Assembly: GCA_036171555.1 (NCBI GenBank)
Contig: JAVHRH010000069.1
Location: 1 to 29,385, forward strand
Length of the DNA stretch: 29,385 nt
DNA from: Parcubacteria group bacterium
GTDB taxonomy: Bacteria > Patescibacteriota > Minisyncoccia > Minisyncoccales > JAVHRH01
Reading direction: 5' to 3'
Shown: piece after piece, positions 3,732 through 13,827 of the stretch
How the letters are laid out: each line of letters begins with the position of its first letter
How positions within the stretch are numbered: position 1 is the first letter of the stretch
The notes under the pieces: model-generated
Database searches by the model: none
Seen by the model: the letters and a program-made list of their open reading frames with translations, nothing else
Told to the model about the DNA's origin: nothing
Translations under genes and position numbers: made by a program

Positions 3732-4613
3732 TTACACTATCGGCGGATTCCAACCCTTAGGCGTTAGAGGCAATTCCCCGACTGAAACATCAATATGTTT
3801 TACGCCAGATTCTAATCTTATTTCTTTGGCGATGAAATTTTCAATGCTTTCCAAATTAGGCGTAACAATGCTGACTAATAAATTATATCTCCCAGAAATT
3901 TTTACTAAATGATAAACCAAAGGAGATTTTTCAAATTTTTCGATAAGTTGATTAATTGTTTTATTGTCTGCTTCAATTTCAATGTGGGCACTGACTGAAT
4001 ATACTTTTCCCATATTTAACAACCCTTGAATTTTCAAAACTCCGTCTGCTATCAATCTTTCTACACGATTTTTAATGCCGACGGGGCTTAGCCCTGTTCC
4101 TTTGGCAATTTCCACAAATGATTCTCTACCATCTTTGGAAAGAGCCTGAATAATCTTTAAATCCAATCCATCTAGTCTCTCTAAACTCCAAGGCGCATAA
4201 GCAGAATATCCTTCAACAGAAAAATCAGCTAAACCTGTTCTATCGCACAAAACAGCAAATTTTATATCTTTTATTTTTAATCTTTCTTTTTTAGCCCTCA
4301 TCGCCTCCATGGCTCTTTTATAGCTTTTGCCAGAAATTATATCATTATCAACCAACAATATTTTTCTTCCCCTAATCTTTTCCTCTGCCAACATCTTTCC
4401 GTTATCGTCCATCTGGACAAAAATAATATTTTTATTTTTGTGGCTTAACCACTGATAAAGACCTAGACCATAAATGTAGCCATCGTCTCCCAAACCAACA
4501 ATAGCTCCCTTGTCTTTTTTAAAATATTGGACAACGCTTTTGCCGATACCATCGATAAATTTTTGAATTGGCGGAAGATTATAGAGAATATTTTTCGGCA
4601 TATTTTTTAACAT
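3732..4613 (-). CDS. Lrp/AsnC transcriptional regulator with an N-terminal phosphoribosyltransferase-like domain
   Basis: Residues ~1-135 carry a PRPP-loop-like motif (KILLVDNDIISGKS). Residues ~147-293 carry an AsnC HTH (LDGLDLKIIQALSKDGRESFVEIAK..GLS..GIKNRVERL) and a RAM domain (ISGRYNLL). The start may be 4601. Confidence 0.75.
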   Translation of the reverse strand: MLKNMPKNILYNLPPIQKFIDGIGKSVVQYFKKDKGAIVGLGDDGYIYGLGLYQWLSHKNKNIIFVQMDDNGKMLAEEKIRGRKILLVDNDIISGKSYKRAMEAMRAKKERLKIKDIKFAVLCDRTGLADFSVEGYSAYAPWSLERLDGLDLKIIQALSKDGRESFVEIAKGTGLSPVGIKNRVERLIADGVLKIQGLLNMGKVYSVSAHIEIEADNKTINQLIEKFEKSPLVYHLVKISGRYNLLVSIVTPNLESIENFIAKEIRLESGVKHIDVSVGELPLTPKGWNPPIV

Positions 4614-5466
4614 AATATTTTATTAATTGATCTTTAATTTCAGGATTAGCAACCGCAATCAATAAATCAACTTTATCATGCTGCCTCCCGGGAATAAATT
4701 CGTAATCTTTATAATTGCCGTCGGAATCAACGCTAATCACCGAGCAACCGGCACATTTTGCCATCGGAAAACCGGGATCGATTTCCGAACGGGGTTCATC
4801 AAACATTACATAAGCATCAATTAAGCCCGAAGCCAAATAAGCATAAATAAATGAACCGCCCTGTGGATAAAGCAGAGATTTAGAATGCAGATTTTTTAAT
4901 AAATCTCCGAAAATATCCAAGAATTTAGAAGAGTATTGAGAGCTCATTACATAAGAGGCTAAAACAATGGGTTCAGTTATTTTTTTTCTAGATGAGGAAA
5001 AAATTTTCTTCTTCCCATTATTTTTCATATCTAATAGATAGTTTTCACCATTATTCATAATGTAAAATTTTTCATTCAAAATGTCAGCAATTCCAGTGGC
5101 AATTGGTCTTCTTTCTTTGTCATAAAAACTCAGAGCAGTGTACCAATTCTGTTCAAATCCCCTTAAAAAAAGAACTGAACCGTCAAAAGGGTCAATTGAA
5201 CCATAAATTTCAGGATTTTCTCCGCCAGTTTTAATATCTCTACCGTCCGGCTCGGAAAAAATAGTTGCTTTTAATTTGTATTTTTTAACGAGTTTTTCCG
5301 CAATTTCCTCTCCTATTCTATCAATTCCGATTTCAATATCTTCCGGCCGATTTATCACCTCACCCAAAATCTCCCGGCCCTGGCCGGCCGCAGCTCTTTT
5401 CTTGACTTCTTCTGTAGTCAAAGTTAAATAATCAATGAGTAATTTTTTAATTTTTTCCTTGTCCAT
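4579..5466 (-). CDS. Inositol monophosphatase/FBPase-family phosphatase (candidate HisN-type histidinol-phosphate phosphatase)
   Basis: Metal motifs FSE and IDPFDGS, C-terminal EIDPG; lies directly downstream of hisC. Confidence 0.75.
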   Translation of the reverse strand: MDKEKIKKLLIDYLTLTTEEVKKRAAAGQGREILGEVINRPEDIEIGIDRIGEEIAEKLVKKYKLKATIFSEPDGRDIKTGGENPEIYGSIDPFDGSVLFLRGFEQNWYTALSFYDKERRPIATGIADILNEKFYIMNNGENYLLDMKNNGKKKIFSSSRKKITEPIVLASYVMSSQYSSKFLDIFGDLLKNLHSKSLLYPQGGSFIYAYLASGLIDAYVMFDEPRSEIDPGFPMAKCAGCSVISVDSDGNYKDYEFIPGRQHDKVDLLIAVANPEIKDQLIKYYVKKYAEKYSL

Positions 5467-5486
5467 GACTTTTAATTTACACCCAA

Positions 5487-6557
5487 TTAAACCACGCTGT
5501 CAAGCATCTCGCCAAGCGCTTTAATAAGAGATCCTGTATCTTTAAGAGTGCCGATGCTGATTCTAACTGCATCTTGCCCGTCAGCGGCCGATTTGGGCCT
5601 GACCAAAATACCTTTCTCTTTCAATCTTTCTATCAATTCTTTGGGATTGGGAACTTTCAGGAGTAAGTAATTAGCTGCGCTCGGATAAAAGAAAATCCCT
5701 TTTTCTCTCAAAAAATTCTCTAGTTTAGGCTTAGATTCCTCCATAACCTCCTTAATATAAGCTTCCATATATGGAATATCAGCCAAGGCAGACAGAATGC
5801 CGATTTTGGCGAACATATTAACGTCATAAGGTCCTCTGATTTTCAGCAATTCCTGGATATTTTTTCCATTAGAAATGACATAACCCGCCCGGCTCGCCAC
5901 CAACCCAAAAGCTTTGGCGAAAGTCCTTAAAATATAAAGGTTGTCGTATCTTTCTATTAAACCCTTGGCCGTGATTTTAGCGAATTCAAAATAAGCCTCG
6001 TCGTGCAAAACAGCTATATCTTTTTCTTTCGCCTTAATTAAGATTTTTTCAATATCTTCGATGGAAATCGCACTGCCTAAAGGATTATTGGGATTGCAAA
6101 GAATAATCAATTTTACCTTTGGGTCTTCAATTAAATTAATAATTTCGGCCAAAGGCAGTTCTCCCTGTTCATTGTATCGCGGCTCTAAAATTTCGGCTCC
6201 TTGAATGCCGGCTGATTGATAGTGCATGGCAAAAGCCGGAAAAGGAATAATAACTTTATCCCCTTCGCCTAAATAAGCACGGCAGACAAGATCAATTCCC
6301 TGGTCGCCGCCATTAGTCACCATAGCTTCGTCCGCTTTTACTCCGGCATATTCGGCAATCTTTGCCTCCAAATCACCGTATTCCGGATAAACCTGTAATC
6401 TGTCTAGGTCAACAAACTTTCTCAAGGCCTCTTTGACTTTGAGGCTGGCCGGAGTCGTCCTCTCGTTGAAATCTAAAAGTAAATAATCTTTAGAACCGCG
6501 CCCTTCGAGGGGCGGTTTGTAATGACCCATTTTTTTGATTCTGTCTTTGATTGCCAT
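5487..6557 (-). CDS. hisC: Histidinol-phosphate aminotransferase
   Basis: Class I/II PLP motifs NE, TNGGDQGI, CNPNNPLG, DEAY, RTFAKAFGL..RAGY (PLP Lys), ANY, RISIG; adjacent to hisB. Confidence 0.85.
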   Translation of the reverse strand: MAIKDRIKKMGHYKPPLEGRGSKDYLLLDFNERTTPASLKVKEALRKFVDLDRLQVYPEYGDLEAKIAEYAGVKADEAMVTNGGDQGIDLVCRAYLGEGDKVIIPFPAFAMHYQSAGIQGAEILEPRYNEQGELPLAEIINLIEDPKVKLIILCNPNNPLGSAISIEDIEKILIKAKEKDIAVLHDEAYFEFAKITAKGLIERYDNLYILRTFAKAFGLVASRAGYVISNGKNIQELLKIRGPYDVNMFAKIGILSALADIPYMEAYIKEVMEESKPKLENFLREKGIFFYPSAANYLLLKVPNPKELIERLKEKGILVRPKSAADGQDAVRISIGTLKDTGSLIKALGEMLDSVV

Positions 6558-6561
6558 TTTT

Positions 6562-7152
6562 TTAAATTAAACCTTTAGTGCTTGGTAATTCTTGTAAAAT
6601 TCTTTTTTCTTTTGAACAGGCCATTTTCATGGCTTTACCGAAAGCCTTAAAGAGCGATTCGGCTTTATGGTGCTCATTTTCTCCGTATAAAATTCTGACG
6701 TGCAGGGTTGCTTCGGCATGCCTGACAAAACCCCAAAAAAATTCCTTAATTAAGTCCGAATATAAATCGCCAATTTTTTCTTTTTTGAACTGACAATCAA
6801 AATTTAAAAATGTCCTGCCGGAGATATCTGCCGACACTACCGAAAGCGCCTCATCTAAGGGAAAAACAAAATAACCGGACCGATTAATTCCTCTATTGTC
6901 GCCAAGGGCTTCTTTAAAAGCTTCGCCAAGACAAATACCAATATCTTCTACTAAATGATGCTGGTCAATTTCAATATCACCCTTAGCTTTAATCGTTAAA
7001 TTAAATAGTCCGTGTTTGGCAAAATTATTCAAAAGATGATCCAAAAAAGGAATGGAAGTGGAAATGTTTGCCTTGCCCGTTCCATCGATATTTAATTCTA
7101 TTTTTATATTGGTTTCTTTGGTTTTCCTTTGAAATAACGTTTTTCTTGACAT
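6562..7152 (-). CDS. hisB: Imidazoleglycerol-phosphate dehydratase (monofunctional)
   Basis: RKTKET, PFLDH, two HHxxE motifs (DQHHLVED, NEHHKAE), PLDEAL and terminal PSTKG. ATG 7152 follows an extended -10 box. Confidence 0.95.
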   Translation of the reverse strand: MSRKTLFQRKTKETNIKIELNIDGTGKANISTSIPFLDHLLNNFAKHGLFNLTIKAKGDIEIDQHHLVEDIGICLGEAFKEALGDNRGINRSGYFVFPLDEALSVVSADISGRTFLNFDCQFKKEKIGDLYSDLIKEFFWGFVRHAEATLHVRILYGENEHHKAESLFKAFGKAMKMACSKEKRILQELPSTKGLI

Positions 7153-7159
7153 ATGTGTT

Positions 7160-7195
7160 ATTTTATCATTATTTGACAAAAATTCAAATAATGAT
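7160..7195. promoter_or_regulatory. Divergent promoter region with a perfect 12-7-12 palindrome
   Basis: ATCATTATTTGA-caaaaat-TCAAATAATGAT (7165-7195). It overlaps the hisB extended -10 TGaTAAAAT (7168-7160, minus) and a TTGACA at 7173-7178 (plus). Confidence 0.6.
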
Positions 7196-7233
7196 GTATT
7201 GTAAAATATGTTCTTTATAGGGAGGTATTAATA

Positions 7234-8031
7234 ATGGAGAAAAAAATTCAGGCTATCTTGGTGGATATCGATGACTGTCTGCTGCCGACTGATGGCTACC
7301 CGTACATAGGCTACTTTCAGGGTCTGCAAATAATCGCCGGGTATGTGAAAAAAGCAAATGAAGGAAGATTTCCCAAAATAAGTTTTTGCACGGGACGGGA
7401 CAGGAATTACGTCGAAGCGGTTGCTTTCTCTGTCGGCCGACCCAATTCCTGGTCGGTAATTGAAAGCGGCATTGCTCTTTTCAACCCGACAACCAAAGAA
7501 CTAGTTTTAAATCCCGCCTTGACCCCAAAAGTCAAAGATGCGTTCGAAATCATTCGACAAGAAAGATTGCCGGGGATTCTCAACAGATTCACAGGACTAT
7601 TTGATTACCCAGGCAATATGATCAACATAGCCCTGGAACGCAAATTCGGGATAGATACTCCGATTGAACAGTGCTATGCCGCAGTCAGGGAAGAACTCCA
7701 AGACCTAGAAAGCCAAGGATTAGTGACTATCCGCCACAGCCGGATTGCCGTGGATATCAGTCCTCAGGGAATCGATAAGGCTTCGGGCATACGATTTCTG
7801 TCTGAAAAGACCGGAGTGCGCCCCAGCCAAATGCTGGGCATCGGAGATTCAAAAGGAGATTTCCCGATGTTAAATCTGGTCGGCTATGTCGGCTGTCCCG
7901 ATAACGCTAGCAAGGAATGCAAAGAGTTGGTCAGAAAGCGGCAAGGTCATCCTTCTCGCGCCGAATATGCTAAAGGCGTAGAAGACGTCATTAATCACTT
8001 CCGAATACATCATCTCATCGATGAGGGCTAA
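7234..8031 (+). CDS. HAD-superfamily hydrolase, subfamily IIB (Cof/SPP-like)
   Basis: Motif I VDIDDCL, motif II CTGR, motif III DKASG, motif IV GDSKGDFPML; SD AGGGAGGT at 7219-7226. Confidence 0.88.
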   Translation: MEKKIQAILVDIDDCLLPTDGYPYIGYFQGLQIIAGYVKKANEGRFPKISFCTGRDRNYVEAVAFSVGRPNSWSVIESGIALFNPTTKELVLNPALTPKVKDAFEIIRQERLPGILNRFTGLFDYPGNMINIALERKFGIDTPIEQCYAAVREELQDLESQGLVTIRHSRIAVDISPQGIDKASGIRFLSEKTGVRPSQMLGIGDSKGDFPMLNLVGYVGCPDNASKECKELVRKRQGHPSRAEYAKGVEDVINHFRIHHLIDEG

Positions 8032-9022
8032 TCCGCTCCAGCCCTCTTTTTTTTATAAGTTTATAAAGAAATTCAATTCCTTCGGTTCTTTTTAAAACAT
8101 AATCTTTAAAGTATTTTTTTCCTTTTGGATTACTCACCGAAAAATAACGAAGCAGGCCCCACCATACTTGCATAACTGGAACCGCTATCGCCAACCAATA
8201 AATTTGATTTCTGTCAAAACACTGATTGTATACTTCATCAACGACTTTTAGAAACTTATCGTACAGAGTTTTATCGACCGGTGGATTGCGAAAAACGTTA
8301 TCGGCAAAAAAATAGCCCAAATCGTATAAAATTCCTCCCCTTTCGTTCATTCCGGCATATTCAAAATCTAACAGATATAACTTGCCATCATTCCCAACGA
8401 TAATGTTTTGGAAAAGAAAATCATTATGCGCCGGAACTCCTTTTTTAAGAATAGTAATTTTATTCTTAACTTCTTTCTCAATCTTTTTCAAATTTAAAAT
8501 AGTTTTTATATCTATAAATTTAGGTATGGCATGTCTTTCAACGGCAACTCTATATTTAGCAAGCTCATCACGAAAAACATCATATTCATTAACAAAACAG
8601 ACGTCGCTCGTATGAAAAATATTAAATAATTTCGCTAATTTTTCCTGATATCTCTTTGTTTTAAAAAGAGACAAGTCAAATAACTTTCCTTCAATATATT
8701 CGGCCAGCATTGTGCCGTCAGGCAGGTTAAAAGTTTCGCGGCTCTTTGGATTCAGAATATTTTTATTATTCAAAATATACAAATAATATCTTGGCAAAAT
8801 CTGCTTTAATTTTTTGTTCCTGTTTAAAGCTAAAATGTTTTTCCCTTCAATTTTCCTGTTGATAACAGCTGTTTCCCAGGGCAAACGAACAAAAAATTTC
8901 TTGTTTTCATGTTGAACAATATAATTCCTGTTCGTCTGTCCGCCGGCCTTGGTAATTTTAATATTTTCCGGCCGCCAGTCCTTATTCAGACGAGAAATCA
9001 ATTGAATATCTTTTTTAATCAT
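8015..9022 (-). CDS. Choline/ethanolamine/thiamine-kinase-family (APH-like) phosphotransferase
   Basis: GGQTNRNY loop, Brenner motif HNDFLFQNI and LLDFEYAG motif; start overlaps the hisD stop. Confidence 0.85.
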   Translation of the reverse strand: MIKKDIQLISRLNKDWRPENIKITKAGGQTNRNYIVQHENKKFFVRLPWETAVINRKIEGKNILALNRNKKLKQILPRYYLYILNNKNILNPKSRETFNLPDGTMLAEYIEGKLFDLSLFKTKRYQEKLAKLFNIFHTSDVCFVNEYDVFRDELAKYRVAVERHAIPKFIDIKTILNLKKIEKEVKNKITILKKGVPAHNDFLFQNIIVGNDGKLYLLDFEYAGMNERGGILYDLGYFFADNVFRNPPVDKTLYDKFLKVVDEVYNQCFDRNQIYWLAIAVPVMQVWWGLLRYFSVSNPKGKKYFKDYVLKRTEGIEFLYKLIKKRGLERISPHR

Positions 9023-10205
9023 TACATTTGAACCTTATTTCAACAGATTTTTTGTGGGCGTCTAATCCTTCCATCTCAGCAAATTTTGAAGCAACTTTAG
9101 CTAGTTTTTTAGCACCCTTTTTATTTATATATTGGTATGTTGGTATTTTAACAAAATCTTTCACTGATAATCCACCAGTATATCTAGCCGTTTTGTTGGT
9201 AGGGAGAACATGGTTTGTTCCTGAACAATAATCGCCAAAAGCTACGGCTGAATAATCGCCGAGAAAAAGAGAACCATAATTCTCAAATTGGTTAAGGTAA
9301 CTTTTTGCATTTTTAACCTGAACTGACAAGTGCTCCGGAGCTATTTTATTGGCGATTTTAATCGCCTCCGCTAAATTTTTAACTAAGATTGTCTTTTTAT
9401 TTTTGAACGCCCTTTTGATTATATTTTTCGTTACCAGTTTTTCGATTTGAAGTTTTAATTCATTATTTACTTTTTTGATTAAATCTTTAGAGTCGGTAAC
9501 AAAAAATATTTTTGTCATCACGTCGTGTTCGGCCTGACCTAAGAGATCGGCGGCGATGAATTTGGGATTAGCATATTTATCAGCCACTAATAAAATTTCA
9601 GTCGGACCGGCTAAAAGATCGATCCCGCAATCCCCGAAAATTTCCTTTTTAGCCGTAGTAACGTAGATATTTCCAGGTCCGACAATTTTATCTACTTTTG
9701 GCACAGTTTTAGTTCCGTAGGCCATGGCCGCTACGGCCTGAACGCCACCAATATTAAAAATTGAATCGGCTCCAGCTAAATCGGCTGCGACTATTGTCGT
9801 TGGTCTTATTTTCGGCGAACAAACAATAATTTTTTTTACGCCCGCCACTATAGCTGGAACGATGCACATCAAAGAAGTCGAGGGTAATGGATATCTGCCC
9901 CCTGGAACATAAACTCCTATTTTTTCGATCGGAATAATTTTCTGCCCAATCGTTATTCCATTCTTTGTATATTCAAAATCTTTAAAATTCCGGAATTGAG
10001 CCATGGCAAACTCCTTGATATTTTTAGCTGCAACTTTTATTGTCTTAACGGTTTCTTTATCCACCATTTTATAAGCCATGGCTATTTCTTTTCTGCTCAC
10101 TCTAAAATTATTCAATTTAATCTTATCGAAAACCTCCGTATATTTTCTGACGGCTTTATCTCCGTTTTTCTTCACATCTTCAATTATATTTTTTACTGTT
10201 CCCAT
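9015..10205 (-). CDS. hisD: Histidinol dehydrogenase
   Basis: YVPGG, GGVQAVAAMAYG, KIVGPGN, GID..AGPTE, QAEHD (Zn ligands), APEHL (catalytic), GDY.SGTNHVLPT and EGLDAH. Confidence 0.9.
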   Translation of the reverse strand: MGTVKNIIEDVKKNGDKAVRKYTEVFDKIKLNNFRVSRKEIAMAYKMVDKETVKTIKVAAKNIKEFAMAQFRNFKDFEYTKNGITIGQKIIPIEKIGVYVPGGRYPLPSTSLMCIVPAIVAGVKKIIVCSPKIRPTTIVAADLAGADSIFNIGGVQAVAAMAYGTKTVPKVDKIVGPGNIYVTTAKKEIFGDCGIDLLAGPTEILLVADKYANPKFIAADLLGQAEHDVMTKIFFVTDSKDLIKKVNNELKLQIEKLVTKNIIKRAFKNKKTILVKNLAEAIKIANKIAPEHLSVQVKNAKSYLNQFENYGSLFLGDYSAVAFGDYCSGTNHVLPTNKTARYTGGLSVKDFVKIPTYQYINKKGAKKLAKVASKFAEMEGLDAHKKSVEIRFKCND

Positions 10206-10278
10206 GTTCTTAAATTGCCCTATTTAAAATCTATCATTTTGTCTTAATTCTGTAAAAGTTTTAAAATAAGATATTGCT

Positions 10279-11100
10279 ATGGAAATTATTTTGGCGAAAA
10301 ATATCGGATTTTGCTCTGGAGTCAAAAGGGCGGTTTTGATAGCTGAAAAAGCATTAAAAGAAGATAAAAAACCTATCCAGTTTTTGGGCGGTTTGGTTCA
10401 TAATGAAAAAGTAATTGAAAAATTCAGAAAAAAAGGCGTCAAATTTATTAAAACATTAAAAGAGGCCAAGCCCGGCACTTTGATTATTCAAGCTCACGGT
10501 ATCGCTCCTTTTTCCAAAAAAATAAACAAAAATATAGTCATCAGAGACGCCACTTGTCCTTTGGTTAAAAAAGCCCAATTAATTGCCAGATCTTTATACC
10601 AACAAGGATTTCAAGTAATTATTATCGGCGACAAAAAACACTCGGAAACCAAAGGAATCAAAGGTTATACTGATAATACGGCTCTAATCGTGGAAAACGA
10701 AAAAATAGCGGCAAAACTACCTAATTTTAAAAAAATCGGCGTTATCTCCCAAACTACGCAAGACTTAAAAAACGTTGAAAAAGTTTTGAATGTTTTGCAA
10801 AAAAAGGCAAAAGAAATAAAATTTATCAATACTCTCTGTCCGGAAACGCAGAACCGCCAGAAAAAATTAAACTTGCTTTTAAAAAAAACAGATGCTATTT
10901 TAGTAATTGGTTCAAAAAAATCGGCCAATACCGGCCGTCTGGTTAAAATCAGTGAAAATGCCGGTAAAGCCGCCTGGTCAATCAATTCCTTATCAGAGCT
11001 AAAGAAAATCAATTTAAAAAATATTTCTAATCTGGGAGTGATTTCCGGAACATCAGCCCCAAATTGGCTGATAAAAAAGATCGTTGACAAAATAAGGTGA
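10279..11100 (+). CDS. ispH: 4-hydroxy-3-methylbut-2-enyl diphosphate reductase (IspH/LytB)
   Basis: Three cluster cysteines (GFCSGV, DATCPLV, NTLCPET), plus HN, HG, H.E, QTT, S..SANT and GTSAP motifs. Confidence 0.92.
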   Translation: MEIILAKNIGFCSGVKRAVLIAEKALKEDKKPIQFLGGLVHNEKVIEKFRKKGVKFIKTLKEAKPGTLIIQAHGIAPFSKKINKNIVIRDATCPLVKKAQLIARSLYQQGFQVIIIGDKKHSETKGIKGYTDNTALIVENEKIAAKLPNFKKIGVISQTTQDLKNVEKVLNVLQKKAKEIKFINTLCPETQNRQKKLNLLLKKTDAILVIGSKKSANTGRLVKISENAGKAAWSINSLSELKKINLKNISNLGVISGTSAPNWLIKKIVDKIR

Positions 11101-11398: not shown

Positions 11399-12676
11399 TC
11401 AAAACAAAGTCTTTTGTTGATTTACTTCTTTTTTCTCTCCTTGGGGGAAAATTCTGATTTTACCAAAAACGCCGTCATAACCCGGCTCTTTGGAAACCTT
11501 TCCTTCTCTGACCCTGATAATGCCTTCGGCTATTTCCGGCCGAGTTACGGTAGCCAAATCCGATCGGGAAACATCAAGCAGAATGTTAAATTCCGAACCG
11601 AATTTTTCAATTAAAATTTTATATTCTTTTTCTACTTCTTTAGTGCCAACTCCCAGATTTAAAACATCAGCGATAATCTCGGCTAAAGGAACTAAACTTT
11701 TGAAAGGTATGGTATTTTGAGGCGCAAAACCTTCTGGCCTGTCAGCCAATTCTTCGACTCGATTCAAGACACCGACGGTTAAGGGCCGGCCGCAAACCGG
11801 GCAAATACCGTTGTATTTTTTCGTTTCTTGGGGCGACAACTTAACATTGCAAACGCGATGGCCGTCAAAATGATATTTGCCTTCTTCGGGAAAGAATTCG
11901 ATGGTATAAAGAAATTTTCCCGCCCCGTTAGAAATTTGATTTCTAACGGGGTAAAGATTTTTTCCTCTGATTACATTAATAATTCCTAAGTAAGACAATT
12001 CCGTATCAAAAACATTAGCTTCCCGGCCGATTTTTTGCGGCGAATGAGCATCTGAATTGCTTATTAAGGTAACCTTGTCCAGGGCAGACAATCGCCAATT
12101 CATAGAGGGGTCAGAAGAAAGTCCCGTTTCAATGGCATAAATATATTTGGCATATTCGTCAAAACATTCTTCAATCGAATCAAAGCCTGATTTGGAACCG
12201 AAAATAGCAAACCAAGGCGTCCAAGCGTGCGCCGGCACCACTAAGCAATCGGGGGAAGCGTTCAAAACGATTTTAGCTAATTCTTTAGCGTCCAAACCCA
12301 AAATCGGCCGGCCGTCTGATCTTAAATTGCCGATCCAACCCAACTGCGCATTGATTTTCTCTACTATTTCGAAAGAGGGCGCAAAAATAATAATATGAAC
12401 TTTCCTAACCTTTCCTCCCTTCGTATAGATGCAACTGATTTCCGTGGTCAGAATAAAACGGGTGCCACCATCTTGCTTTAACTTAAATAGACCCGACTCA
12501 GCCGGTATCAGTTTTTCTTTTAAATTGGCAAACCATTCAGGATGAGTGAAATCGCCTGTGCCCAAAACTTTAATGCCTTTGATTTTGGCCCATTTATCCA
12601 AACTTTCCAAATCCATATCGTGGCTGGTTGCCCGAGAATATTTACTATGGATATGAAAGTCGGCTATGAATTCCAT
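11399..12676 (-). CDS. Endonuclease Q-family protein (PHP domain plus Zn ribbon)
   Basis: ADFHIHSKYSRATS, GTGDFTHP, PAHAWTPW, ETGLSSD, SNSDAHS, GKYHFDGHR.C, CPVCG and PGYDGVFG motifs. Start set at MEFIAD. Confidence 0.85.
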   Translation of the reverse strand: MEFIADFHIHSKYSRATSHDMDLESLDKWAKIKGIKVLGTGDFTHPEWFANLKEKLIPAESGLFKLKQDGGTRFILTTEISCIYTKGGKVRKVHIIIFAPSFEIVEKINAQLGWIGNLRSDGRPILGLDAKELAKIVLNASPDCLVVPAHAWTPWFAIFGSKSGFDSIEECFDEYAKYIYAIETGLSSDPSMNWRLSALDKVTLISNSDAHSPQKIGREANVFDTELSYLGIINVIRGKNLYPVRNQISNGAGKFLYTIEFFPEEGKYHFDGHRVCNVKLSPQETKKYNGICPVCGRPLTVGVLNRVEELADRPEGFAPQNTIPFKSLVPLAEIIADVLNLGVGTKEVEKEYKILIEKFGSEFNILLDVSRSDLATVTRPEIAEGIIRVREGKVSKEPGYDGVFGKIRIFPQGEKKEVNQQKTLF

Positions 12677-13827
12677 AAGGGTAATTGAGAGATGGCTCCC
12701 AAAACAAAAATAATCATTAAAAAATACAATAGCCAACCGGGTATTTTCAAGCTATATTCCGGCAGCCTGTCGCCCAAGGTTTTGGCCTTTTTGAAAATCA
12801 AAATAATAATTATTCCTTCAATAACACCGACGAAGGCGCCGATAAAACCAATGATGTTAATAAAGCTGCGCAAACCTAACAGATAGAGGAGGAAGGGAAA
12901 ACCTGTCGCAATTAAAAAAGACATTTCCCCAGGAAATTTCAAGTCGTGAATAAAGGTATTCATCAGATAAAGACCCAAAACCAGGAAAGAATCGGCCAGG
13001 GTGATAACGCCGGCTAAAACTCCTAAAAGAACCAGCTTTTGGCCTAAAACGGACAGTAAACCGGAGAAAAGATCGGGTGAAATATTTTTACCGGAAATCC
13101 CAATCAGAATAAAGGAAAAACAAAGATAAAAAGCAATGACAATGATTGCCGATAAAATGATTATCTTTTTTATTTCTTTTTTCTCGGCTGAACTTTTAAG
13201 GAGATCATTAATCTCGGGCAAAGCCGACCAGCCCACCAAAGAAAAGAGGATAACTCCGTAAGGCAAAAGAACGTTGGCTGAACTTAAAAACGCAAAATTT
13301 GAAAAGTCTAGTTGAGGCAGGCCGAACCAAAGAATCAGAAAGATGGCGGCAAAAAAGAGGACATTGGTAAAAATTTCGGCCGGGGCAATTATTTTTAGCC
13401 CTCTCCAGATGAAATAAGACAAAACTAGCCAAAAAATAAAAACGAACCAAAAAGATGATGGCGAACCGATTGACGGAAAGACGGCGGAAAATAAAATTTT
13501 CAGAAAATCACCTCCCAGAATGATATAGGCTAAAAGGCTGCCGACTACCCCGAAGAGAACCGAAAAAACAGCTAAAATTTCGCCGGGTTTACCCAGATAT
13601 TTTTTAGCGAAACCGGGCAAGCGATATTTTTCATTGGTTCTCAAAATTATTTCGCCAAAAAATAAGTGAATCAAAGTGACGGCTGCTCCCAATATCAAGA
13701 GATAAAAAAAGCCGGGGATAATCCCGCTTCTGTCGATGACGTAAGGCAAACCGAAGATGCCAGCCCCTATAGTTGTCCCAAGCAAAACCGAAAGAGAGAG
13801 AAAAAAACGTTTGTTGCTGAGAAACAT
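12664..13827 (-). CDS. Aromatic amino acid permease family transporter (Trp/Tyr permease / AAAP-like)
   Basis: GTTIGAGIFGLPY motif, about 11 hydrophobic helices, PYGVILFS. Confidence 0.8.
   Translation of the reverse strand: MFLSNKRFFLSLSVLLGTTIGAGIFGLPYVIDRSGIIPGFFYLLILGAAVTLIHLFFGEIILRTNEKYRLPGFAKKYLGKPGEILAVFSVLFGVVGSLLAYIILGGDFLKILFSAVFPSIGSPSSFWFVFIFWLVLSYFIWRGLKIIAPAEIFTNVLFFAAIFLILWFGLPQLDFSNFAFLSSANVLLPYGVILFSLVGWSALPEINDLLKSSAEKKEIKKIIILSAIIVIAFYLCFSFILIGISGKNISPDLFSGLLSVLGQKLVLLGVLAGVITLADSFLVLGLYLMNTFIHDLKFPGEMSFLIATGFPFLLYLLGLRSFINIIGFIGAFVGVIEGIIIILIFKKAKTLGDRLPEYSLKIPGWLLYFLMIIFVLGAISQLPLWNS

Follow-up and report, generated by a model that had tools for sequence, protein, structure and literature searches.

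To our knowledge, textbook histidine biosynthesis contains no kinase, and histidinol is its sole salvage entry. Enteric bacteria carrying mutations in early his genes grow on histidinol through HisD, histidinol dehydrogenase. The canonical late genes are hisB (imidazoleglycerol-phosphate dehydratase, IGPD), hisC, and hisD, which in the actinobacterial/plant arrangement are joined by a HisN-type phosphatase gene. A block at positions 3732–10205 of contig JAVHRH010000069.1, from a Parcubacteria group bacterium, appears to encode the same four reactions in similarly packed operons. (The contig, 29,385 nt in full, is the stretch of DNA analyzed and is here called the window.) The block differs from the canonical arrangement in that its genome lacks any early his genes, and in that it holds a regulator of its own and, beyond the four enzymes, a kinase and a further phosphatase. 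Gene order shows the block to be a 5′-truncated copy of a complete, lineage-specific his operon of Patescibacteria (Paceibacteria type). We put at about an even chance the reading that the truncated block is a salvage module acting on externally supplied intermediates.

Seven open reading frames make up the block and lie where an earlier note, made from the DNA letters alone, had placed them. Profile searches agree with the families that the note had read there (hisB-hisC-IMPase-regulator, HAD, and hisD-kinase). The features are as follows.

3732–4613, minus strand: regulator, a phosphoribosyltransferase (PRT)-like domain fused to an Lrp/AsnC helix-turn-helix (HTH) and RAM domain; last gene of the IGPD operon
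4579–5466, minus strand: IMPase-family phosphatase, candidate HisN-type (Inositol_P, 33.7 bits)
5487–6557, minus strand: HisC, histidinol-phosphate aminotransferase (TIGR01141, 259.6 bits; cut-off 276.55)
6562–7179, minus strand: IGPD, the HisB dehydratase (PF00475, 206 bits, cut-off 27; NF002111, 267 bits, cut-off 231)
7153–7233, no strand: promoter region from which the IGPD operon and the HAD gene diverge, with a TTGTCAA box
7234–8031, plus strand: HAD-IIB (Cof/SPP-like) phosphatase (Hydrolase_3, 49.9 bits; TIGR01484, 42.6 bits, cut-off 41.8)
8015–9022, minus strand: kinase of the choline/ethanolamine-kinase/APH fold (PF01633 Choline_kinase, 58.2 bits, cut-off 29)
9015–10205, minus strand: HisD, histidinol dehydrogenase (TIGR00069, 519.5 bits, cut-off 243.8)
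10206–10278, no strand: 73-bp deletion junction ispH/hisD, from comparison with the gene order of a relative's locus, L012

The genes form three transcription units: hisD-kinase, the HAD gene, and IGPD-HisC-IMPase-regulator. The 3′ end of hisD runs 8 nt into the kinase gene. The IGPD-HisC-IMPase-regulator genes are packed with a 4-nt gap, a 20-nt gap, and a 35-nt overlap, in that order. The HAD gene is divergent from IGPD and convergent with the kinase gene, the two 3′ ends overlapping by 17 nt. The source genome, at 578 kb, is split into 77 contigs (number 69 is the window), with a completeness of 94.5% and a contamination of 3.2%. Independent Logan contigs from four groundwater metagenome runs span the block and the hisD|ispH|endoQ junctions with 0–3 differences; the layout is therefore not an assembly chimera. 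Matches to the sequence were found in groundwater DNA runs only, and a search for RNA evidence found none.

All seven genes look catalytically intact, judging from what they encode. The HisD zinc and catalytic motifs (QAEH, APEHL, GDYxSGTNH, and AH) align with those of the PDB HisD entries 6an0 and 1k75. The protein scores 318 bits against HisD proper versus 255–268 bits against sulfopropanediol dehydrogenase paralogues, and it is 73–76% identical to the HisD proteins of relative loci L012, L013, and L032. HisC falls narrowly below its equivalog cut-off, as does the L012 orthologue (270.2 bits), which lies inside a full his operon. The top 11 PDB sequence matches of the window HisC are HisC proteins, and its pyridoxal-phosphate lysine, phosphate-binding arginines, and NPNNP, DEAY, and VRISIG motifs align to 8bj1. 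In IGPD, both Mn motifs are intact, DQHHLVED (DQHHxxED) and ENEHHKAE, and they are kept in the orthologues, which are 80–85% identical. Judging from the orthologues, the true IGPD start is probably the ATG at 7152.

Profiles for HisG, HisA/F, HisI, HisE, and HisH (PF01634, PF00977, PF01502, PF01503, and TIGR01855) found no match in the 94.5%-complete genome; the same searches matched in 14 of 14 control genomes. Searching the genome by tblastn with a relative's HisAF, HisI, and HisG proteins revealed no remnants. Thus, the absence of early his genes, which the earlier note had reported for the window, extends to the whole genome, and no early operon was found elsewhere in it. The genome has one gene for histidyl-tRNA synthetase (HisRS) and no HisZ-like paralogue; given HisRS, the organism needs histidine. 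Within the limits of a 94%-complete genome, this rules out de novo histidine synthesis. Might ordinary de novo synthesis proceed from early genes in the unassembled 5%? The number of contigs and the completeness leave room for this. We consider it very improbable, as the expected position of the early genes is the 73-bp ispH junction, which independent contigs bridge, as 34 of 36 relatives likewise lack HisG together with HisA/F, and as no early-gene remnants exist. Since the cell cannot make imidazoleglycerol phosphate (IGP), the module could work only on intermediates from outside.

The relatives were found by a pattern scan, one genome per species, that yielded 36 genomes with a kinase orthologue. 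The window proteins were mapped by tblastn onto the relative loci, and gene tables of three metagenome contigs were added. (L and G numbers denote loci and genomes, respectively.) The earlier note had named two findings that would refute its reading, and the reading withstood both. A complete early his operon elsewhere in the genome did not turn up, and a lack of conserved linkage between his genes and those for the kinase and HAD protein is contradicted by these 36 species-level genomes, where such linkage is found. In most of them the order is EndoQ or RtcA, kinase, HAD (opposite strand), IGPD, HisC, IMPase-like, regulator, GreA, and in some cases an HD protein; the HAD gene keeps its position in most of the loci. 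IGPD is present in 33 of the 36, strong HisA/F matches in four, and HisG in three. HisD is present in only six, plus one fragment, and 30 of the 36 keep the kinase-to-regulator genes without it. That is, hisD is the unusual part of the window block; among 40 genomes of the same order, one other has HisD. In a sample of 400 genomes of the phylum the kinase, whose family is too rare to be caught by random sampling, was found in none, and IGPD was found in 10, all of 1.0–2.1 Mb and none with the kinase. Five loci were fetched from the IGPD-bearing sample genomes; HisC-like or HisA/F genes adjoin IGPD at three of them.

The variants of the cluster are several. No fewer than five arrangements join HisD to it: upstream of the kinase (the window, L012, L013, and L032); as hisD-IGPD-kinase-HAD, with a HAD of IA type (L017); as a 41%-identity HisD between the HisC and IMPase genes (L058); as hisD-kinase-IMPase-regulator (L060); and as a HisD::kinase fusion, discussed below. 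At several loci IGPD is replaced by a version of 31–41% identity, on the other strand and still adjoining the kinase. G450 (L018) has kinase-HAD-HisC-IMPase-regulator and no IGPD in the genome, L061 has kinase-IMPase-regulator, L054 has hisI-hisG but no hisA/F, and G453 and G455 have lone hisF-like genes. The IMPase and HisC genes are kept or lost jointly, and kinase plus regulator is the most persistent pair.

Two side observations concern these genomes. A protein of 414–423 aa composed of two IGPD-like repeats is encoded at L055:8605–9846 (G455:C19), and also on G172:C1 and G303:C13; the L055 gene is flanked by two class I/II aminotransferase genes and a HisF-like gene. Bin G469 holds two versions of the cluster, L054 and L038, each ending in GreA. 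The L038 version has the kinase and a GpsA gene; the L054 version, hisI-hisG-IGPD-HisC-IMPase-regulator, has none of kinase, HAD, and hisD. Two strains have probably been mixed in this bin.

How did the window arrangement arise? Two relatives among the 36 have a full operon: Ca. Paceibacter normanii SCGC AAA255-P19 (genome G444, locus L012) and G445 (L013). In both, hisD-kinase is immediately preceded by genes for a HisA-HisF fusion, HisI, and two long-form HisG proteins; on the upstream side a Prs-like gene, rtcA, ispH, and ispG are transcribed divergently; and the kinase gene sits between hisD and the HAD/IGPD genes. It follows that the kinase, both phosphatases, and the regulator are native to a complete lineage-specific his operon. 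The earlier note had described them as added to a late-steps module, a description that the L012 and L013 operons contradict. (In L012 the region is 5230–8776, the HisA-HisF fusion is 490 aa long, and the two HisG proteins are paralogues.) The Ca. Paceibacter normanii genome contains neither HisE nor HisH, and therefore phosphoribosyl-ATP hydrolysis and ammonia supply must be handled in another way there.

The 73-bp spacing between ispH and hisD in the window corresponds to the L012 arrangement minus the Prs-like gene, rtcA, hisAF, hisI, and both hisG genes. Other relatives have other junctions, as follows. rtcA adjoins the kinase gene in L004/L009, L010, L036, L038, and L042; ispH adjoins the kinase gene in L030; and endoQ adjoins it in many other loci, with the ispH-hisD junction being that of the window. 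In a tree of the kinases, the window kinase is sister to that of L008, which lacks hisD (support 95/88), and these two group with the hisD-less L004 and L011 (support 100/99). The neighboring group includes L012 and L013, which have the full operon, and L010, which lacks hisD. Taken together, the differing junctions and the kinase tree indicate that 5′ truncation has occurred several times, always sparing the kinase gene and what follows it.

A separate observation is that the ispH gene next to the junction (10279–11100, plus strand) encodes the last step of the methylerythritol phosphate (MEP) pathway, and that tblastn with a relative's IspG found no ispG in the 578-kb genome. In L012, ispG and ispH occur together.

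We compared the nonsynonymous divergence (dN) of the window genes against six hisD-less and two full-operon relatives. Synonymous sites are saturated (proportion of synonymous differences, pS, 0.63–0.95), and thus only dN relative to flanking housekeeping genes is usable, not dN/dS. The dN is 0.09–0.12 for IGPD, 0.15–0.21 for HisC and the IMPase-like gene, and 0.11–0.21 for the regulator, next to 0.18–0.19 for EndoQ and 0.16–0.25 for GreA. Faster are the kinase (0.23–0.46) and the HAD gene (0.28–0.62). The values are alike in hisD-less and hisD-bearing loci. Thus, the retained IGPD, HisC, IMPase, and regulator genes are under purifying selection, being as slow as the flanking housekeeping genes, and the kinase and HAD genes are constrained despite their faster evolution. 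The low dN argues against a mere relic.

The block could nonetheless be a decaying remainder of a de novo operon, its late genes not yet lost and doing no useful pathway work. Relatives display every kind of partial set (G453, G455, L054, L029, L062, and L061), just as reductive decay would produce. We judge this not likely, on several grounds. All seven are intact; IGPD, HisC, IMPase, and the regulator do not exceed GreA and EndoQ in dN at synonymous saturation; the genes mostly persist in a hisD-less kinase clade of 12 members; independent deletions end at the kinase each time; and 5 kb of useless genes would be rare in genomes of 0.3–0.9 Mb.

Besides its Choline_kinase match, the kinase has the catalytic motifs HxDxxxxN (HNDFLFQN) and DFE (DFEY). 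Its AlphaFold2 model (pLDDT 88.7) has LicA (4r7b) as its top Foldseek match, with TM scores of 0.70/0.80, and the top 26 Foldseek matches are choline/ethanolamine kinases. The roles of the LicA catalytic and cation-pocket residues are described in PMC4364537. In a HMMER alignment, LicA Asp176, Asn181, Asp194, Glu196, Tyr197, and Glu213 correspond to kinase D201, N206, D219, E221, Y222, and D241. Kept from LicA are thus the catalytic Asp, the Asn and Asp that bind Mg, the box Tyr (Y222), and the acidic cation partner (D241), and a Trp pair, W287 and W288, is invariant. From this mapping and the Trp pair, the pocket is predicted to be built for a cationic amine or azolium beside a primary alcohol.

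LicA of Streptococcus pneumoniae (PDB 4r77/4r7b) and the eukaryotic choline/ethanolamine kinases are thus the best match to the kinase in sequence (E 4e-12) as well as in fold. The differences from LicA are that identity is about 21%, that the spacing of the Trp pair differs, and that the kinase forms a separate, sharply bounded family, encountered only in his clusters of Patescibacteria, alongside which neither lic genes nor a cytidylyltransferase gene is conserved. A collection of 5.8 billion proteins contains 229 close homologues, nearly all labeled Patescibacteria. A profile search of 1.84 billion cluster representatives gave 16 clusters at E ≤ 1e-30, followed by a sharp drop to generic choline-kinase-like proteins, and an ESM Atlas search with the kinase returned generic APH/ChoK clusters only. 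The best 150 hits of the profile search include no HAD fusion of roughly 786 aa. The nearest outgroup proteins are ordinary members of the choline-kinase family, several of them fused to LicC-like nucleotidyltransferases.

One Logan contig encodes a 759-aa HisD::kinase fusion (protein P0123, L059:2538–4817). It is preceded by a Peptidase_C26/GATase gene and followed by a 41-aa C-terminal IGPD remnant and then the start of HisC. A prediction of a HisD-kinase complex scored 0.00, a result that counts neither for nor against an association.

It might be argued that the kinase is no pathway enzyme at all, being instead a regulatory or protein kinase that works with the regulator, or an unrelated amino-alcohol kinase, with IGP coming straight from the host. 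The APH/ChoK fold is known to include protein kinases, kinase and regulator form the most persistent pair, and lone kinase genes lie amid unrelated genes in L029 and L062. We give this idea a low probability. In the window the kinase is translationally coupled to hisD, and at one other locus (L059) it is fused to it; it is confined to his contexts in the 36 genomes; and its co-occurrence with IGPD is far above background.

The favored reading, salvage of outside intermediates, can be laid out as a series of steps. The intermediates would most likely come from the host or from neighboring cells. The kinase, as the only encoded enzyme that could bring an imported unphosphorylated imidazole compound into the pathway, may convert imidazoleglycerol to IGP. 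IGPD would then form imidazole-acetol phosphate, from which HisC would make histidinol phosphate. The IMPase-like phosphatase would release histidinol, with the HAD-IIB enzyme as a second or alternative phosphatase, and HisD would oxidize histidinol to histidine. An alternative for the kinase step is the phosphorylation of histidinol to histidinol phosphate, as metabolic trapping.

Each substrate has something to commend it. Phosphorylation of imidazoleglycerol alone would supply a substrate to IGPD, whose gene is better conserved than any other in the cluster, and it would connect every enzyme of the window. Phosphorylation of histidinol is the smallest chemical step from an ethanolamine kinase and fits the HisD fusion and the hisD-kinase-IMPase variant. 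One kinase accepting several imidazolyl-propanols would reconcile both. We suggest, tentatively, that the enzyme is an imidazoleglycerol kinase or a broader imidazolyl-propanol kinase, which would make it the first recorded case of salvage feeding into histidine biosynthesis at the level of IGP.

Salvage from imported intermediates, as the earlier note had put it, therefore stands as the best reading, together with the exclusion of de novo synthesis within the bounds given above. Uptake, the kinase substrate, the action of a phosphatase on histidinol phosphate, and the ligand of the regulator are parts that we infer, as is the histidinol-derived product that the note had offered as another outcome.

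Several points weigh against this reading. The nearest relatives of the kinase are amino-alcohol kinases, LicC-LicA-type fusions among them, and so histidinol fits better than imidazoleglycerol; a histidinol kinase, in turn, opposes the phosphatase and leaves IGPD without a substrate. We know of no report of imidazoleglycerol as an environmental nutrient. The searchable literature has no imidazoleglycerol or histidinol kinase on record, and in no paper there is IGPD or histidinol joined with Patescibacteria. No single substrate assignment fits all variants, as L018, L059, L060, and L061 have the kinase without IGPD, and L054 has IGPD without the kinase. In the 30 relatives without HisD, the pathway ends in histidine by no known enzyme. 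No transporter is linked to the cluster across the relatives, and the genome is 94% complete, not 100%.

Since most relatives lack HisD, one may ask whether the real product of the module is histidinol, histidinol phosphate, or a derivative, with hisD as an optional add-on. The strong constraint on IGPD, HisC, and IMPase in the absence of HisD speaks for this, as does the descent of the kinase from LicA-type kinases, whose products pass to cytidylyltransferases. A cytidylyltransferase-like/APS-kinase-like gene does lie within the cluster in L003, but no transferase conserved with the cluster was found across the relatives. Further, the window has an intact HisD with translational coupling to the kinase, and HisD has joined the cluster in several layouts and in a fusion, which points to oxidation of histidinol to histidine where possible. 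A source of IGP would still be needed. A histidinol-type end product therefore seems to us unlikely.

The loci in which kinase or IGPD has been lost while the other stays (G450/L018 and L054, respectively), and the L059 fusion beside its IGPD remnant and HisC, raise yet another idea. The kinase, perhaps with the HAD protein, might be an ATP-driven substitute or backup for IGPD, in which a hydroxyl is phosphorylated and the phosphate then eliminated. This is improbable, as kinase and IGPD co-occur in 33 of the 36 genomes, both under constraint and with no one-for-one alternation, as the fold and pocket are those of kinases that act on primary alcohols of amino alcohols, and as the origin of IGP is left unexplained.

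Turning to the phosphatases, the IMPase-like protein keeps the DPxDG[ST] metal motif as DPFDGS and is far under the HisN equivalog cut-off (TIGR02067, 21.9 versus 275 bits). It is thus a member of the IMPase superfamily and a candidate for a HisN-like role from its context alone. The HAD protein passes its HAD-IIB profile and contains motifs I–IV, as DIDD, the T of FCTGR, the K of IDKASG, and GDSKGD. In E. coli, bifunctional HisB is a HAD histidinol-phosphatase fused to IGPD, so that a HAD phosphatase is likewise paired with IGPD, and in Wildermuthbacteria-type variants of the cluster HAD and IGPD are co-transcribed neighbors, resembling the HisB pairing. Unlike the HisB phosphatase, the window HAD protein belongs to subfamily IIB rather than the HisB-N type, is encoded by a separate divergent gene, and coexists with an IMPase-like phosphatase.

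In precisely those four loci that are without the HAD-IIB gene, the cluster includes, in its place, a GpsA-like paralogue of NAD-dependent glycerol-3-phosphate dehydrogenase (L003:1840–2832, L024:11041–12060, L030:11057–12049, and L038:11663–12652; between-locus identity 51–55%). This paralogue could act on imidazole-acetol phosphate or on IGP, since the former is a substituted dihydroxyacetone phosphate and the latter a substituted glycerol-3-phosphate. One of the four genomes has a second GpsA elsewhere.

A gene outside the block, at 11399–12736 (minus strand) and annotated 'PHP-like / MJ0043_C', was considered as a third phosphatase and rejected: it encodes Endonuclease Q (EndoQ; PDB 5zb8/7k30, E 2e-55). 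EndoQ is mainly archaeal, this being a bacterial homologue, and the precomputed domain table of a public collection lists 'MJ0043_C' only. In most relatives this gene, which encodes 415–445 aa, adjoins the kinase cluster, but it serves DNA repair and stands outside the module. The adjacency of EndoQ, GreA, and the HD-domain gene is inherited synteny, not function, and that of EndoQ and GreA shows vertical inheritance of the region. Next to endoQ, two genes from the cluster, is a permease gene of the Trp/Tyr-permease/Aa_trans family (12664–13827, minus strand), the sole transporter candidate and a possible importer of aromatic or imidazole compounds. L005 and L006 likewise have a member of this permease family, a few genes upstream of their clusters.

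The regulator has complete HTH_AsnC (PF13404, 42.8 bits) and AsnC_trans_reg (PF01037, 35.7 bits) matches, and in front of these a PRT-like domain of about 145 aa. The match of that domain to Pribosyltran (PF00156), 24.9 bits, is just below the cut-off of 26.3, and there is a weak PyrR match too. The PRT-like::AsnC fusion, with an invariant VDNDIITGK loop, is present in 18 of 18 aligned orthologues, 13 of which are matched by Pribosyltran (best E 2.9e-7). Our searches found no described example of such a fusion. In the AlphaFold2 model the N-terminal domain is Rossmann-like. Foldseek was run with the whole model, in which the Lrp half dominated the matches (AsnC, Lrp, and FFRP to the C-terminal half, E down to 1.6e-11) and the N-terminal domain was not separately matched.

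The regulator can be compared with the PRT-fold sensors PurR and PyrR of B. subtilis, with which it may share a PRT-type phosphoribosyl-binding loop, and with the Lrp/AsnC feast-famine regulators, with which it shares a complete AsnC HTH and RAM domain. It departs from them in its phosphoribosyl-pyrophosphate (PRPP)-type loop (VDNDIISGKS), where the SGxS part is kept and the acidic pair reads D-N. A catalytic role of the PRT-like domain is unlikely; we infer that the regulator senses a phosphoribosyl or otherwise phosphorylated ligand together with an amino acid.

The TTGTCAA box recurs in 14 loci, where it precedes the IGPD ATG by 20–35 nt; it probably serves as the −35 element of the IGPD operon. 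Its closeness to the IGPD start suggests that the leader of the IGPD-HisC-IMPase-regulator operon is very short or absent. A generic promoter and terminator scan gave counts equal to those of shuffled controls.

If the salvage reading is correct and the kinase does act on imidazoleglycerol or related propanols, ultra-small symbionts would take up dephosphorylated intermediates that leak from their hosts and turn them back into histidine, or into histidinol in genomes that have lost hisD. Genome-reduced symbionts would thereby have a new means of covering an amino-acid need from host metabolites. The persistence of the kinase family after loss of the early genes, and usually of hisD, points to an unassigned enzyme activity. 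In addition, the relatives form a truncation series (full operon, hisD onward, kinase onward, and smaller sets) that makes reductive pathway evolution in the Candidate Phyla Radiation (CPR) directly analyzable.

To summarize, the block is a variant of a known pathway with an uncharacterized, pathway-specific kinase family. Its nearest physiological parallel is the use of histidinol by enteric bacteria via HisD, where likewise a late enzyme gives histidine from an external intermediate to a cell without IGP synthesis. There, HisD alone suffices, whereas here IGPD, HisC, the phosphatases, and the kinase are also retained, a sign that entry lies further upstream or else that phosphorylation serves to trap the intermediate.

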